A stretch of DNA of 64,000 nt from a virus. The position numbers were made by a program, and so were the translations under genes. Below, piece by piece: positions 39,744-57,031 of this stretch (positions are counted from its first letter, which is position 1; every line of letters starts with the position of its first letter). The notes beneath the pieces are model-generated. The model searched no databases, was not told where the DNA came from, and was given only the letters and a program-made list of their open reading frames with translations. Location of the stretch: IMG/VR virus record IMGVR_UViG_3300045988_109767, positions 1 through 64,000 of that record; one strand, written 5' to 3'.

Positions 39744-39759
39744 TGTCTTACTTTTTTAG

Positions 39760-39831
39760 AGGCTTGTGGCGGAATCGAACCGCCCTACGAGATTTTGCAG
39801 ATCCCTGACTAAACCACTCATCCAACAAGCC
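39760..39831 (-). tRNA. tRNA-Cys (GCA)
   Basis: Manual cloverleaf: acceptor GGCTTGT/ACAAGCC; anticodon stem GGGAT/ATCTC; loop CTGCAAA; T-arm GGCGG-TTCGATT-CCGCC; discriminator U. Confidence 0.7.
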
Positions 39832-39834
39832 ATG

Positions 39835-39906
39835 TAGCCCAACCGGGAGTCGAACCCGGAACTAAAGTTTAGGAAACTTTTGTTATATCCGTTTAACTAC
39901 CAGGCT
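39835..39906 (-). tRNA. tRNA-Arg (CCT)
   Basis: Acceptor AGCCTGG/TTGGGCT with three G-U pairs; D-stem GTTA/TAAC; anticodon stem AAAGT/ACTTT; loop TTCCTAA; T-arm CCGGG-TTCGACT-CCCGG. Confidence 0.6.
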
Positions 39907-39975
39907 ATTTAATGTTTGCTATGTTCACACACCGCAAACATTCAGATAATTAACATTTCCACAAAAACTTAATCG

Positions 39976-40046
39976 TTATCCAAGGAGGATTCGAACCTCC
40001 GCTAACAGAACCAAAATCTGTTGTGCTACCACTACACCATTGGACA
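39976..40046 (-). tRNA. tRNA-Gln (TTG), U1:A72 as in bacterial tRNA-Gln
   Basis: Acceptor TGTCCAA/TTGGATA; D-stem GTGT/GCAC; anticodon stem ACAGA/TCTGT; loop TTTTGGT; T-arm GGAGG-TTCGAAT-CCTCC. Confidence 0.65.
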
Positions 40047-40047
40047 G

Positions 40048-40120
40048 TGGTCCCGGAGGGATTTGAACCCACGATCTTGCGGTTATGAGCCGCCTGCTTT
40101 TACCACTAAGCTACAGGACC
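40048..40120 (-). tRNA. tRNA with CAT anticodon (elongator Met or Ile-lysidine type)
   Basis: Acceptor GGTCCTG/CGGGACC; D-stem GCTT/AAGC; anticodon loop CTCATAA; T-loop TTCAAAT; one mismatch each in the anticodon stem and the T stem. Confidence 0.5.
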
Positions 40121-52841: not shown

Positions 52842-53157
52842 CGATGATGTTTCTTACGTAGATCGGAAACTTCTTGTGCTAAGGGATCAGATAGATAAGG
52901 CTGAACGTTATCTATCTGAAAATCCTTGGGATAAAATAGAAGATTCCGATAAGAGGGAGAAAGAATTTAGGTTTCAAAAGAGCTTGTCTGATAGCTTAAT
53001 GCAATGGACTGAATCTTATATTAAGATGTGTGGAATAATGGATGTCTATAATCAGCTTGAGGCTGCCAAAAACAAGAAAAGCCTAAAAGGAGGACAAACA
53101 GTATCAGGTATTCAGTCTTTTGTTAAGAATGAAGCTAAGAACAAGCTCGATAAATAG
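52819..53157 (+). CDS. hypothetical protein immediately upstream of terL (the small terminase subunit usually sits here; no motif support)
   Basis: 112-aa ORF; synteny argument only. Confidence 0.4.
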   Translation: MKARKPTNDDVSYVDRKLLVLRDQIDKAERYLSENPWDKIEDSDKREKEFRFQKSLSDSLMQWTESYIKMCGIMDVYNQLEAAKNKKSLKGGQTVSGIQSFVKNEAKNKLDK

Positions 53158-53164
53158 TTTTGTC

Positions 53165-56100
53165 ATGAATATTAACAGTAAAGAACTTTATATAAATATG
53201 GGTAACGATATTCCGTTATGGAATGACCTTTATTCTTATGAAGAGCAAGACAATGATGTCAAGCAATTCTGGGAGAATGAGGCTATGAAACTCCTTAACG
53301 GTGTTACCATAAATGGGGTATTTATCCATCCTTGGCTATACTGGCATATCAATTTCTGGAAGATGATGATTGACGTAGGAGATGATCGTATTCCTGGAAA
53401 TTCGCAGCTTCGTGATAATGAATGGATGTTTGCCGAATTTCTAAAGCAGGCTGAAGAAGAGAATAAAGGAATATTCATGTTCGGGTGCCGTCGTTTTGGA
53501 AAAGCCCTTCTTGATTCTGAGATACTTTATCTTGAGGACCGGGAAAAGATGATAGGAAATATCGTTGTAGGGGATAAGATATATGACGATAAAGGGAATT
53601 TGGTAGAGGTCGTAGGTGTTTATCCCCAAGGAAAAGTAACTACCTACAGAGTCGTATTCGAAGACGGTCGTAACGTTATTTGCTGCGGTAATCATCAATG
53701 GCGCGTCAATCATGGAGGAAAATGGCATGTTAGGAGTCTTAGATCCATAGCCGGATTAGATTATAAGAGTATGTCTATTCCAGTAGGTGAGGCCCTGAAC
53801 TACCCTACGGCAAAGCTGCCGGTTCCTCCGTCAGCCTACGCCTCGATGCTGGCGGCTTATCTCGGTGGCTATGGTGGGGATATGTTTTTTGATAAATACG
53901 TTTGTAAGAAGTTTTTAAGATCGTCCATAGATCAAAAGAAAGATTTTATAGAAAACTTCATTCGTTCTTTCAGAAACGTAGTAACCGGAGAAGAAGAGCT
54001 TATGTTGTCTCATATTGATATGGATGTCATAAATTTTGTACAACGTATGTTTTGGGCTTCAGGTTGGTATGCTAAATTGGAGGGGAACAAACTTATACTA
54101 TCAAGGAATCGTAAGGAATTAAAAATAAGATCCATATCGATATACGGTAAGGAGCATGCCACTTGTATAACCGTTGATAATGATTCTCATTTATTTTTGA
54201 CCACCAATTACATCGTTACTCATAATACGGCCATAATGAGTTCTCTTCTGGCCCGTAATGCTACAATGACGTACAATTTGACGCATAATGTTATTGGAGC
54301 AAGTAAAGAAGACCTTGCCAATATGGGAGAGTATCTTGAGTTTGGACTTGATAATCTTCCTCCTTATCTTACTATAAACAGGACTGGTAACGACTGGACT
54401 AAAGAAGTTGTTTTAGGTACAAGAAACATCAATAATCAACGTGATGTTCATGCCAGAATAAGAATCACCAACGTTGATGATGGAAAGACACGAGGCTCAT
54501 TGAAGACCGCAGGCGGAACTCCATATACGTCTATATATGATGAGGTAGGTAAATTCCCGGTGCTTGGGGCATGGCTTGCCGGTAGGCCGGCTCATATGAT
54601 GCATGGTAGAATGAGGGGCGTTTGTTTGATGGCTGGATGTTGTTGTGCTGGTACAATAGTGTACAAATCAAACGGAGAACCGTGTAGGATAGAGGATTTA
54701 AAACAAGAAGATGGAATAATAGGATTCGATAATATATCATCAAAAGCTGTAAGTCAAGACATAACATGGATGAAACCCCCTGCCGAGAAAGAGTGTTATA
54801 GAATAACAACAAAAAGAGGAAGGGTACTTGAATGTAGTGGGGATCATCCCATATTGACTGTTGTAAAGAAAAGGAAGGGTAAATTTAGGTACTTTGGATC
54901 TGATTTTAGAAGGGCTGATTCTCTTAGAGTTGGACGTAAAATATGTGTATCAGATGGTGTGGATATATGGGGAGATAAAAAAATGTTTGATCCATACCTT
55001 GTTGGCATTCTAATAGGGGATGGGAGCTATGGTTTTGATAAGACTCCTATTGTGTCTACCAGTGATGATGAGGTGTATGATTATATACGATCTAAATATG
55101 AGTGTTGTATAGAGAAACAGTATAAGACTAAGGACGGAAAAGATTATAGGGAAATAAGAATAAAAGGTATATGCCATGAGTTAAGGGAACTTGGTATATA
55201 TGGTCAGACTAAAAAAAACAAAACACTTCCTTTAAATATACATTCATATAGAAGAGAGGATGTTATTATGATGATTAGGGGGTATTTTGATGCTGATGCT
55301 ACTTTTTATTCTAATAACAATAATAGGGATCATCGTATAAGTTTAGGATCTTGTAATAGGCATCTTCTTGAAGAAGTAAAGGATGTTCTTTTTAAATTTG
55401 GAATACATAGTACTATTTCTTATAGCCCATCTAAAAATCCAGCAGATAGATCAATTATTCTTGATTCATATGTATGTAATATATTGGATAAATTATCCAT
55501 GCTTAAATATTGTGATATAATTGGAACAGATATAGGATATAGAAGAGAGAAACTTGATTCTATAAGGAAATTCGGTTCTAATTTTAGCACATTTGGATCT
55601 TTTAGGTCAAAATATTTAGATGGAGTGATAATAGAAAGGATAGATAAGATAGAGTATATAGGAATTAAGCCTGTTTACAACCTCACTGCATCAGATACTC
55701 ACACTTATATAGCAAATGGTATTATAACTCATAACACTGGCGGTAATGTAGAAAAGTCTCAAGATGCACAGAAAATCATGAACTCTCCGGACGAATATGG
55801 ATTTATTATAATGAATTATGATATTCTAAATAAGAGAGTTATTAAACCAACATGGCGTATATGTAAATCTGGATGCTTTGTTCCGGCCCAGATGTCTCAT
55901 GCGTATGAAAAGAAAGAAACGACTCTTGATAAGTATCTTGGAGTAGAGAATGCTCCCGGTCTTAAGAAGATAAAAATAAAAGTTTCAGACTTTGATAAAA
56001 ATACTGGAATAATAAAATCACGTCTTGACGAACTTGTCAAAAAGGATAGGGCTTTATACGTCCAGGAACGAATGGCATTCCCTTTGTCTATAGATGATTG

Positions 56101-57031
56101 TTTCCTTAATACGAACGTAAATAGGTTCCCTGTAGAAGATGCGTTGAAGCACAAAAGCCGTCTTCTTGAAGAAGGTAGGCCTGGTAAAACAGTGGATATT
56201 TATCAGATAGACGGCATGAAAATGGGGTATAATTTTAGTGATAAGCAGCTTGCTGATTATCCGTTTCAAGGTGGTAACATAGATTCTCCTGTTGTTATAT
56301 ATGAGGATCCACCAGAAGAAGGAGGTGTTTTTGATTACACTTATGTTTCATCGCTTGACCCCTATAAATCTGACAAGGCTGATACTGATTCTGTTGGTTC
56401 GTTTTATGTACTTAAAAGATATGTAAAAATCAACGATCCATTTGCTTATTGCATAGTAGCATCATACGCATCACGTCCTCCATCTTCCGATGATTTTTGT
56501 AGGAATTGTGAAATACTTCAAGAAGCGTATGGGGCCAAGTGTCTTATGGAGAATGCCGACCGAATGTATGAATTTTATCTTACGAGACGAAATAAGCAGC
56601 TTATGTTGCTGGAAGATGGCGAACGTCTTGCCGGTAAGATTATTCGTGCTGGCGCCCGTCAGAACAACAAGCTCGGTTTGGCTCCTACGGTTCCCAATCA
56701 GCGTATGCTTTTCAATACCGTTATTCAATATTGTTGGGAGGATGTTGTTGTTGGGTATGATGATGATGGTAATGAAATAACACAGAAAGGTATTTACCGT
56801 ATCCCTGATATAGAACTTCTTGATGAGATCATAGCCTTCGGCCCTGGGGCCAACACCGACCGTATCATAGCCTTCGGCCACGCTCTTCTTCTGGCTAAGT
56901 ATTATGATGATATGGGTTACATGCCTGAAAGTACGACTCAGAAGGAGAATCAAAAGAAGAGAGAGCGCAAGAAGATAGAACAGGTCAAAGGATTTACGGT
57001 AAGAAGACATAACCCTTATAAAATGAGGTGA
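53165..57031 (+). CDS. terL: terminase large subunit precursor with two in-frame inteins (exteins 53165-53503, 54227-54637, 55736-57031; about 681 aa after splicing)
   Basis: Walker A GCRRFGK|T is restored across intein 1; Walker B SIYDEVG; the C-terminal nuclease-domain region is acidic; lies directly upstream of the portal gene; ATG at 53165 preferred over 53120. Confidence 0.8.
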   Translation: MNINSKELYINMGNDIPLWNDLYSYEEQDNDVKQFWENEAMKLLNGVTINGVFIHPWLYWHINFWKMMIDVGDDRIPGNSQLRDNEWMFAEFLKQAEEENKGIFMFGCRRFGKALLDSEILYLEDREKMIGNIVVGDKIYDDKGNLVEVVGVYPQGKVTTYRVVFEDGRNVICCGNHQWRVNHGGKWHVRSLRSIAGLDYKSMSIPVGEALNYPTAKLPVPPSAYASMLAAYLGGYGGDMFFDKYVCKKFLRSSIDQKKDFIENFIRSFRNVVTGEEELMLSHIDMDVINFVQRMFWASGWYAKLEGNKLILSRNRKELKIRSISIYGKEHATCITVDNDSHLFLTTNYIVTHNTAIMSSLLARNATMTYNLTHNVIGASKEDLANMGEYLEFGLDNLPPYLTINRTGNDWTKEVVLGTRNINNQRDVHARIRITNVDDGKTRGSLKTAGGTPYTSIYDEVGKFPVLGAWLAGRPAHMMHGRMRGVCLMAGCCCAGTIVYKSNGEPCRIEDLKQEDGIIGFDNISSKAVSQDITWMKPPAEKECYRITTKRGRVLECSGDHPILTVVKKRKGKFRYFGSDFRRADSLRVGRKICVSDGVDIWGDKKMFDPYLVGILIGDGSYGFDKTPIVSTSDDEVYDYIRSKYECCIEKQYKTKDGKDYREIRIKGICHELRELGIYGQTKKNKTLPLNIHSYRREDVIMMIRGYFDADATFYSNNNNRDHRISLGSCNRHLLEEVKDVLFKFGIHSTISYSPSKNPADRSIILDSYVCNILDKLSMLKYCDIIGTDIGYRREKLDSIRKFGSNFSTFGSFRSKYLDGVIIERIDKIEYIGIKPVYNLTASDTHTYIANGIITHNTGGNVEKSQDAQKIMNSPDEYGFIIMNYDILNKRVIKPTWRICKSGCFVPAQMSHAYEKKETTLDKYLGVENAPGLKKIKIKVSDFDKNTGIIKSRLDELVKKDRALYVQERMAFPLSIDDCFLNTNVNRFPVEDALKHKSRLLEEGRPGKTVDIYQIDGMKMGYNFSDKQLADYPFQGGNIDSPVVIYEDPPEEGGVFDYTYVSSLDPYKSDKADTDSVGSFYVLKRYVKINDPFAYCIVASYASRPPSSDDFCRNCEILQEAYGAKCLMENADRMYEFYLTRRNKQLMLLEDGERLAGKIIRAGARQNNKLGLAPTVPNQRMLFNTVIQYCWEDVVVGYDDDGNEITQKGIYRIPDIELLDEIIAFGPGANTDRIIAFGHALLLAKYYDDMGYMPESTTQKENQKKRERKKIEQVKGFTVRRHNPYKMR
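53504..54226 (+). mobile_element. intein 1 (241 aa) in the TerL P-loop, starting with Ala instead of Cys/Ser (class-2-like), with a degenerate endonuclease region
   Basis: Block A ALLDSEILYLED; block B CGNHQW; blocks F/G ATCITVDNDSHLFLTTNYIVTHN followed by the +1 residue Thr; LAAYLGGYGGD is a LAGLIDADG remnant. Confidence 0.6.
54638..55735 (+). mobile_element. intein 2 (366 aa) with a double-motif LAGLIDADG homing endonuclease
   Basis: Block A CCCAGTIVYKSNGEPCRIEDL; block B SGDHPILT; LAGLIDADG motifs YLVGILIGDGSY and IRGYFDADATF; blocks F/G PVYNLTASDTHTYIANGIITHN followed by the +1 residue Thr. Confidence 0.75.

Follow-up and report, generated by a model that had tools for sequence, protein, structure and literature searches.

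The large terminase gene (TerL) considered here raises the question of how a packaging ATPase can function when its Walker A motif is split by a 241-residue domain that begins with Ala rather than with Cys or Ser. The gene lies in a window (the whole stretch of DNA analysed) of 64,000 nucleotides from the IMG/VR record IMGVR_UViG_3300045988_109767, and the source is an Epsilon crAss-like phage of the human gut. The original prediction read the domain, intein 1, as a class 2 (KlbA-like) intein in which the +1 residue attacks directly, with a splicing-dead intein as the alternative. On the evidence given below, intein 1 very probably belongs to class 3, is able to splice and has become fixed in the Walker A P-loop of TerL. 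The following features of the gene are needed at the outset.

53165..57031, + strand: TerL gene with two inteins (ORF reading; spliced product against PHROG 6681; TerL of OR575929.1)
53483..53503, + strand: N-extein part of Walker A, G-C-R-R-F-G-K (sequence reading; contiguous in intein-free homologs)
53501-53503, + strand: Lys, residue -1, codon AAA (sequence reading)
53504..54226, + strand: intein 1, 241 aa (723 nt), class 3 by signature (sequence, PDB profile match, AlphaFold2/Foldseek)
54227..54229, + strand: Thr+1, codon ACG, first C-extein residue, Walker A Thr and predicted acceptor of the N-extein (sequence reading)
54638..55735, + strand: intein 2, 366 aa, Cys1...His-Asn/Thr, class 1 with a LAGLIDADG domain (Pfam; alleles without intein 2)

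The open reading frame at 53120-57031 (+) encodes 1303 aa without interruption. Its mechanical start is the TTG at 53120; the TerL start is probably the ATG at 53165 (MNINSKELY...), and the equivalent Met is also where the homologs P0002 and P0003 begin. After removal of both insertions, the product matches phrog_6681 (terminase large subunit) with E = 7.5e-81 over residues 7-666, i.e., nearly its full length, and its Walker A becomes contiguous, as expected of a large terminase of the crAss-like/Cellulophaga phage type (PHROG 6681). A tblastn search with TerL returned annotated TerL of Cellulophaga and crAss-like phages, and the nucleotide identity of the TerL region to the annotated TerL of OR575929.1 is 93%.

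The insertion splits Walker A between Lys and Thr (GCRRFGK/T), and the precursor reads ...FMFGCRRFGK / ALLDSEILY...TTNYIVTHN / TAIMSS.... The same region is uninterrupted in the intein-free terminases of Leptolyngbya phage Lbo-JY46 ('GARRLAKTQFI'), Cellulophaga phage phi17:2 ('AATRRLFKSTGL') and crAss001 ('AKRGCAKSYSL'), and Walker A is contiguous in intein-free homologs as GARRLAK-T and AATRRLFK-S. By this comparison, both boundaries of intein 1 are confirmed, and the original reading of an Ala-first insertion at 53504-54226 between the Walker A Lys and Thr, with the terminal HN and Thr+1 intact, is upheld.

That the insertion is an intein is established well beyond chance. Solved inteins matched a profile of it and its homologs with E-values from 1.3e-12 (6riz) to 5.5e-05 (6riy), the closest solved relatives by sequence being the gp41-1 inteins (wild type and WCT-engineered), followed by the class 3 DnaB inteins. 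Pfam, applied to intein 1 alone, gave only sub-threshold matches (Hom_end_hint 0.022, Intein_splicing 0.069), so that Pfam alone would miss it and PDB sequence and profile searches are needed. The AlphaFold2 model has a pLDDT of 96.1, and at E <= 0.001 Foldseek paired it with 53 solved structures; every one of the 50 listed has a HINT fold, most of them being inteins, and the target-normalised TM scores to 6bs8, 6rix, 6riy and 6riz are 0.78-0.84. Intein 1 thus combines a HINT fold with a C-terminal Asn (Asn241), which is invariant. Its catalytic positions are as follows.

53504..53506, + strand: Ala1, codon GCC, block A:1, non-nucleophilic (sequence reading; conservation in the family and across loci)
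53693..53701, + strand: His64-Gln65-Trp66, block B:10 to B:12, Trp66 being the W of WCT (HMMER alignment with the HQW of 6bs8)
54164..54166, + strand: Cys221, codon TGT, block F:4, the C of WCT and predicted initiating nucleophile (aligned with the catalytic Cys of 6bs8 and 6rix)
54218..54226, + strand: Thr239-His240-Asn241, block G, with Thr239 the T of WCT (G:5) and Asn241 the predicted cyclising residue (sequence reading; conservation)
54221-54226, + strand: codons CAT AAT of His240-Asn241 (sequence reading)

Class 3 inteins are defined by a non-nucleophilic residue 1, the WCT triplet (B:12, F:4, G:5) and Thr or Ser at +1, and they occur mostly in the ATPase P-loops of helicase-like proteins, phage large terminases included (PMC2807308). 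The Lys/Thr P-loop site is itself a 'classic' intein insertion according to PMC5050341, so the arrangement is not the rarity it had been taken for. Intein 1 carries the full class 3 signature: position 1 is Ala and holds no Cys, Ser or Thr nucleophile, Trp66 stands two residues after the block B His64, Cys221 (in ATCITVDN) occupies F:4 and Thr239 (in VTHN) G:5, His240-Asn241 closes the domain, and Thr+1 is the first C-extein residue. Since the complete WCT triplet together with Thr+1 is what defines the class, intein 1 is assigned to class 3. Tori and Perler reportedly widened this definition in 2011.

In the HMMER alignment, the HQW and the Cys of the query fall on the HQW and the catalytic Cys of the class 3 inteins 6bs8 and 6rix. 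Block B:7 of intein 1 is Cys where Thr is usual, and the class 3 prototype does without B:7 (PMC2807308). It should be noted that grafting WCT and C1A onto the class 1 intein gp41-1 gave no productive splicing (PMC7664689); the triplet alone is therefore necessary but not sufficient.

The signature is conserved well beyond close relatives. In a family alignment of 19 members, with identity down to 24%, the columns invariant in 19/19 include H64, Q65, W66, C221, H240 and N241, while G:5 is Thr in 18 members and Ser in one (relative P0005/P0014). Position 1 holds Ala in 16 members and Asp in the other 3, and never Cys, Ser or Thr; an intact Cys1, part of what would have counted against the original prediction, thus occurs in none of the 19. 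Among 230 related intein copies, taken from the top 150 representatives of 11,094 hits, Cys at F:4 is present in all 230 and the full WCT in 216, and position +1 is occupied by Thr in 170 copies, by Ser in 53 and by Cys in 7 (Thr/Ser in 223/230).

Based on this signature, we infer that intein 1 splices through a Cys221 branched intermediate, by the class 3 route established for the MP-Be DnaB intein (PMC2807308). The Cys221 thiol would attack the Lys(-1)-Ala1 peptide bond, with His64 and Trp66 activating the junction, and the product would be a thioester-linked block F branched intermediate. The N-extein would then be transferred to the Thr+1 hydroxyl, giving the block G branched ester intermediate, cyclisation of Asn241 would free the intein, and an O-to-N acyl shift would join Lys to Thr and restore GCRRFGKT. 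Because splicing would recreate this motif, TerL would bind nucleotide only afterwards. Intein 1 has lost its homing endonuclease activity and is passed on vertically with the gene. The loss of activity concerns the middle of the intein.

53801..54103, + strand: central insert, approximately residues 100-200, LAGLIDADG-fold homing-endonuclease remnant

This insert is a remnant of about 100 aa that appears to have no catalytic acidic residues. An active LAGLIDADG endonuclease has two helices, each with a catalytic Asp or Glu at its end and each followed by a four-stranded DNA-binding sheet. Intein 1 does not qualify as an active enzyme of this type: Phe156 aligns with PI-SceI Asp326, the first motif is GGYGG versus the expected GDG, at a position that varies among homologs, and Pfam gave no LAGLIDADG match for the central insert of the window sequence, in agreement with the degenerate endonuclease region described originally. 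The segment LAAYLGGYGGD lies within the insert at residues 116-126 (53849-53881), and the second motif helix is DFIENFIRSFRNV. Since an hhalign comparison of the insert profile with intein 2 was not significant (probability 0.6%), LAAYLGGYGGD may be likened to the first LAGLIDADG motif by position and pattern only; a Foldseek search with the central insert alone gave no significant match. The remnant is itself under purifying selection, with a pN/pS of 0.10.

The distribution of intein 1 was followed in 157 locus retrievals covering the site (77 + 80, from two overlapping IMG/VR scans). The intein is present in 157/157, always 241 aa long and with unchanged catalytic residues; HQW and Cys221 are invariant, and the Ala1 codon, compared across related genomes as had been proposed, is GCC or the synonymous GCT throughout. 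Many of the 157 intein-bearing viral contigs are near-complete genomes of 130-150 kb. A junction-spanning IMG/VR query returned no empty-site allele among the best 80 of 177 hits. We observed a high correlation between intein and extein divergence (r = 0.94), and intein 1 and TerL have co-diverged down to approximately 28% identity. All of this bears out the original view of an old, fixed intein. Relative to crAssE-Sib, the dN/dS of intein 1 is 0.026 (19 synonymous and 2 nonsynonymous differences), within an overall range of 0.026-0.06, and the population pN/pS across three intein regions is 0.04 to 0.10, all of these estimates being based on pairs of related sequences that are mutually non-independent.

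These data also bear on the alternative of a splicing-dead intein or a decaying gene, in which the insertion is retained and the terminase is either inactive or works with the insertion in place. The lack of a canonical N-terminal nucleophile and the dead endonuclease would fit such a state, but 241 residues lodged between Lys and Thr of Walker A would break up the loop with which this essential packaging ATPase binds nucleotide, and every catalytic residue is intact. Together with the low dN/dS, the length of exactly 241 aa kept in all 157 related contigs and the co-divergence with TerL, this makes a dead intein very unlikely.

Under the class 2 mechanism, the +1 residue would attack the Lys-Ala1 bond directly and lead straight to a block G branched intermediate, with no internal nucleophile involved. 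Intein 1 does share with KlbA inteins Ala1, that is, the lack of an N-terminal nucleophile, as well as the intact HN and a +1 nucleophile. However, class 2 is defined without WCT, and its known members attack with Cys+1, helped by an Asp at F:4 (PMC2807308), whereas intein 1 has the full WCT, Cys at F:4 and Thr+1. A Thr hydroxyl is far less able to attack an amide directly, and the invariance of Cys221 and Trp66 in the 19 diverged members and the 230 related copies would be left unexplained. Moreover, the KlbA intein is absent from the PDB sequence matches at E <= 10, from the profile matches at E <= 1 and from the 50 best Foldseek fold matches. We regard the class 2 assignment as extremely improbable and replace it by class 3.

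The N-terminal boundary could also be placed elsewhere, e.g., at the Cys that precedes Ala1 by six residues (in GCRRFGK), which would yield a normal class 1 intein, but this reading has practically no chance of being correct. The RRxxK residues belong to the extein, as RRxxK-T/S stays contiguous in intein-free homologs, most relatives have Thr in place of that Cys (FGTRRFGK), and block A aligns from Ala1 in 33/33 directly aligned relatives, with GK preceding it in 27.

Intein 2 of the same gene serves as an internal control for the class 3 reading of intein 1: it starts with Cys1 and lacks both the Trp of B:12 and the Cys of F:4. Its Pfam matches are Intein_splicing (4.1e-14) and LAGLIDADG_3 (6.2e-12), and its boundaries were set from alleles that do not contain it. 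The site of this class 1 intein is still polymorphic, being empty or occupied by a full-length intein or a mini-intein.

Apart from the difficulty of removing it precisely, a further reason for the retention of intein 1 could be its action as a post-translational switch on DNA packaging, an idea that we put forward by analogy with the redox-trapped class 3 intein Msm DnaBi1 and consider unlikely. Block B contains a Cys-Cys pair, Cys60 (B:6) and Cys61 (B:7), in the same active site as Cys221, and Cys is the commonest B:7 residue among relatives (80/230). Oxidation could lock the terminase precursor, and packaging would then be confined to the anaerobic host's reduced cytoplasm.

The published analysis of crAssE-Sib, a 93%-identical phage, does not mention inteins (PMC11054128). 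According to a later paper, Epsilon crAss-like genomes contain no mobile elements (PMC12386605), a statement that needs correction. The Epsilon crAss-like terminase is a precursor, and its P-loop would exist only after the predicted splicing. As a class 3 intein now fixed, stripped of its endonuclease and diverged in step with its host gene, intein 1 offers a clean natural case. It does not imply a new mechanism, since the class 3 pathway, the preference for P-loops and the occurrence in phage terminases have all been published.

Among known systems, the class 2 KlbA intein of Methanococcus jannaschii has Ala at position 1 in common with intein 1, but it is an archaeal intein in a non-ATPase extein, without WCT and with Asp at F:4 and Cys+1 (PMC2807308), and its sequence shows no detectable similarity. 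The best solved sequence matches are gp41-1 (6QAZ, E = 1.7e-10) and its engineered WCT variant (6RIZ, E = 1.3e-12); gp41-1 resembles intein 1 in the block B neighbourhood, the THN terminus and the P-loop context of a phage helicase, whereas its natural form is split and of class 1, with Cys1, Phe at B:12 and Asp at F:4.

Inteins, class 3 ones included, are documented in the large terminases of mycobacteriophages (PMC5050341), where TerL1-a is the P-loop intein and class 3 is named for TerL1-c, -d and -e. These belong to actinobacteriophages and have terminase_1 exteins, whereas intein 1 is found in a crAss-like terminase (PHROG 6681) from the human gut.

Msm DnaBi1 (6BS8/6OWN) and Mch DnaBi1 (6RIX/6RIY) share with intein 1 Ala1, HQW, Cys at F:4, the terminal THN and insertion into a P-loop after Lys, and they match the family profile with E = 2e-05 to 5.5e-05. 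They differ in being bacterial helicase mini-inteins of 139-146 aa without an endonuclease remnant, only about 15% identical to intein 1; Msm DnaBi1 is, in addition, regulated by a Cys48-Cys118 disulfide (PMC6195587).

The class 3 prototype, the MP-Be DnaB intein of mycobacteriophage Bethlehem (PMC2807308), is compared with intein 1 here by published features. It starts with Pro, resides in a helicase and is 341 aa long, whereas intein 1 starts with Ala, resides in a terminase and has 241 aa with only an endonuclease remnant. Both have a non-nucleophilic residue 1, WCT at B:12/F:4/G:5, a C-terminal His-Asn, Thr+1, a phage origin and an insertion in a P-loop motor ATPase, and intein 1 is predicted to follow the same pathway, by way of a branched intermediate on the block F Cys.

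The large terminase (TerL) gene of the window is an uninterrupted ORF of 1303 aa (53120-57031, + strand) flanked by a putative gene for the small terminase subunit and a portal gene. It contains two insertions, intein 1 (723 nt, 241 aa) and intein 2 (54638-55735), and after removal of both the remaining 681-aa TerL gives a near end-to-end match to PHROG 6681 (terminase large subunit, E = 7.5e-81) with the Walker A motif GCRRFGKT. Across intein 1 the protein reads ...NKGIFMFGCRRFGK / ALLDSEILYLEDREK ... LFLTTNYIVTHN / TAIMSSLLARN..., and codon reading of the junctions gives the following:

53501-53503, + strand, Lys(-1), codon AAA
53504-53506, + strand, Ala1, codon GCC
54221-54226, + strand, His240-Asn241, codons CAT AAT
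54227-54229, + strand, Thr+1, codon ACG

Intein-free homologs are contiguous at this site, namely Leptolyngbya phage Lbo-JY46 (GARRLAKTQFI), Cellulophaga phage phi17:2 (AATRRLFKSTGL) and crAss001 (AKRGCAKSYSL), and the boundary is therefore correct. The original prediction was thus exact as to coordinates (53504-54226) and length, and right in placing an insertion with Ala as its first residue between the Walker A Lys and Thr; the N-terminal boundary, which it allowed might lie elsewhere, stands. A Cys six residues upstream of Ala1 was considered as part of intein 1 and rejected: it belongs to the extein, as the contiguous homologs indicate, and is replaced by Thr in most relatives.

With regard to the TerL start, the mechanical ORF (53120) and the GenBank annotation of a relative both use a TTG start that gives an overlap with the upstream gene. 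Metagenomic homologs begin instead at an ATG 15 codons downstream (53165, MNINSKELY), and this ATG is the more probable start. The window also carries a cluster of four tRNA genes on the minus strand (39759-40120; Cys-GCA, Arg-CCT, Gln-TTG, Met-CAT).

Pfam barely detects intein 1, and the evidence from other sources that it is an intein is strong. A phmmer search of PDB sequences matched gp41-1 inteins and class 3 DnaB inteins, and a four-sequence profile matched 6riz (E = 1.3e-12), 6qaz (1.7e-10), 6bs8 (2e-05) and 6rix (2.7e-05). The AlphaFold2 model, with 19 family members as input, has a mean pLDDT of 96.1 and a pTM of 0.92; Foldseek found 53 solved structures at E <= 0.001, and the 50 matches listed are all HINT-fold proteins, inteins for the most part.

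In known class 2 inteins Cys+1 attacks the N-terminal junction directly, and in class 3 inteins a non-nucleophilic residue 1 co-varies with Trp B:12, Cys F:4 and Thr G:5 (the WCT triplet), with Thr or Ser at +1 (PMC2807308). All class 3 defining features that we tested are present in intein 1: block B is ...NVICCGN-H64-Q-W66-RV, block F is HAT-C221-ITVDNDSHLF, and block G is IV-T239-H-N followed by Thr+1. In the HMMER alignment, its HQW lies opposite that of the Mycobacterium smegmatis class 3 intein DnaBi1 (6bs8), and Cys221 opposite the catalytic Cys of both 6bs8 and 6rix. We consider it highly probable that intein 1 is a functional class 3 intein. The class 2 (KlbA-like) label, originally proposed from Ala1 together with HN and Thr+1, fails on two features that define this class, the lack of WCT and Cys+1, since the full triplet is present and residue +1 is Thr. 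Intein 2, an internal control in the same protein, begins with Cys and lacks both Trp at B:12 and Cys at F:4, and is therefore an ordinary class 1 intein. The triplet is required but not enough by itself, since gp41-1 with a grafted WCT failed to splice productively (PMC7664689), and the class 3 argument is carried by natural WCT conservation and purifying selection, not by the triplet alone.

At the same P-loop site, Ala1, His and Trp are conserved in metagenomic homologs of 64%, 61% and 41% identity, as is Cys wherever the C-terminus is present. Searched with a profile, 1.84 billion cluster representatives gave 11,094 matches at E <= 0.001; the whole 241-aa architecture, ...GK/A(D)L...THN/T(S), was found in 17 of the top 150, at least 12 of which are terminase-like proteins of ~910-1320 aa. 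In the family alignment of 19 sequences (identity down to 24%), the invariant columns include H64, W66, C221, H240 and N241, T239 occurs in 18/19, and position 1 is Ala (16) or Asp (3), never Cys, Ser or Thr; an intact Cys1 in homologs, envisaged earlier as a counter-indication, was found in none of the 19. Among 230 copies with both halves parsed from the same top 150 representatives, Cys at F:4 is universal (230/230), the full triplet occurs in 216, and residue +1 is Thr in 170, Ser in 53 and Cys in 7; position 1 is Ala in 33/33 directly aligned copies, 27 of them with GK before it. Intein 1 therefore belongs to a large, common class 3 family, and its arrangement, originally supposed to be rare, is not.

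Asp at position 1 (...K/DLLN...), unusual for an intein, occurs in the representatives P0120, P0160 and P0040, which retain His, Trp, Cys and THN. Four others (P0076, P0146, P0053 and P0118) have the 241-aa-type class 3 architecture, including the endonuclease remnant, after the P-loop GK of other host proteins, for which BLAST similarity to the window terminase is absent; thus, the family has moved between different P-loop hosts. A Cys60-Cys61 pair (53681-53686) occupies B:6 to B:7, the place of the block B Thr in class 1 inteins; at B:7, Cys occurs more often than any other residue among the related class 3 copies (80/230, top 150 representatives), and the pair could form a putative redox trap with the catalytic Cys221.

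The 241-aa domain between the Walker A Lys and Thr must leave for the packaging ATPase to work. The nearest GenBank genome is that of phage crAssE-Sib (OR575929.1, deposited under the name 'csAssE-Sib'), at 93% nucleotide identity. In a comparison with it, 19 differences in intein 1 are synonymous and 2 nonsynonymous (dN/dS 0.026; N-extein 0.136, C-extein 0.167). Among 63 distinct intein-1 DNA sequences, pN/pS is 0.04 in the N-terminal Hint part, 0.10 in the central insert and 0.056 in the C-terminal Hint part. The intein is present at a length of 241 aa in 77/77 and 80/80 site-covering loci of two overlapping IMG/VR scans, with Ala1, H64, W66, C221, THN and Thr+1 unchanged and the Ala1 codon, whose comparison across related genomes had been suggested, being only GCC or synonymous GCT. 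With the junction-spanning query of the second scan, a contiguous intein-free allele would have ranked best, and none was found among the best 80 of 177 matches. Across 12 terminase representatives, intein and extein identities to the window change together (59/77, 54/70, 46/49, 43/43 ... 28/29%; r = 0.94), consistent with long vertical co-inheritance. Low dN/dS and pN/pS, fixation and co-divergence make a splicing-dead element, the other reading offered originally, very unlikely, and the unchanged catalytic residues also stand against it; the description as an old, fixed intein holds.

By homology to characterised class 3 inteins (PMC2807308) and from the class 3 signature, Cys221 is predicted to attack the bond between Lys(-1) and Ala1 at a junction activated by His64 and Trp66, which would give a thioester block F branched intermediate. 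Trans-esterification would then transfer the N-extein to Thr+1, Asn241 cyclisation would release the intein, and an O-to-N shift would create the Lys-Thr bond and complete Walker A.

Between the two Hint halves the model has an alpha/beta insert of ~100 residues. Pfam gives no match for the window insert and Hom_end in 2 of 19 homolog inserts (best E = 6.7e-4). Foldseek with the whole model places PI-SceI first among the matches listed (query-normalised TM 0.70; mini-inteins ~0.45), and with the insert alone finds nothing significant. The insert profile matches PI-SceI 310-364, the second LAGLIDADG helix, at E = 0.017, with window DFIENFIRSFRNV opposite TFLAGLIDSDGYV and Phe156 opposite Asp326, the catalytic Asp of that motif. 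LAAYLGGYGGD (residues 116-126) lies at the expected place of the first motif with Tyr at the expected acidic position, and is variable among homologs (SGTICE, CGSTDR, AGSEPE); since hhalign was not significant for this equivalence, it is one of position and pattern only. Only a short helix separates the two motif helices, so the first half-domain is mostly gone. The two substitutions and the largely missing half-domain mean that the endonuclease is degenerate, as originally predicted; purifying selection nevertheless acts on the remnant, which the intein probably needs for folding.

The intein 2 site, in the C-motif region (...CLMAG/C...HN/TGGN), varies among close relatives: 56 of 77 loci (within L006-L085, retrieved viral loci) are empty, 15 carry the 366-aa LAGLIDADG intein and 6 a related mini-intein of 144 aa that shares its termini. 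Compared with the crAssE-Sib allele, which lacks intein 2, the sequence is 96-99% identical in nucleotides but drops to 69-77% over ~600 nt around the insertion (flanks ~54320-54637 and 55736-56020), a pattern suggestive of a co-conversion or recombination tract imported with intein 2.

The window comes from an Epsilon crAss-like phage near crAssE-Sib, whose GenBank TerL CDS (OR575929.1; locus L001, 4119-6932) includes intein 1. The word 'intein' has zero occurrences in the crAssE-Sib paper (PMC11054128), a later paper describes Epsilon genomes as free of mobile elements (PMC12386605), and inteins in the Delta and Zeta groups were described by Yutin et al. (PMC7886860); the intein 1 family in Epsilon crAss-like phages appears to be unreported. 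Our results correct its mechanistic label from class 2 to class 3. Class 3 inteins are for the most part P-loop insertions in helicase-like proteins, phage large terminases included (PMC2807308), and account for 287 of 784 inteins in an actinobacteriophage survey (bioRxiv 10.1101/2025.01.02.630785); PMC5050341 calls the Lys/Thr P-loop insertion site 'classic' and places class 3 inteins in mycobacteriophage TerL.
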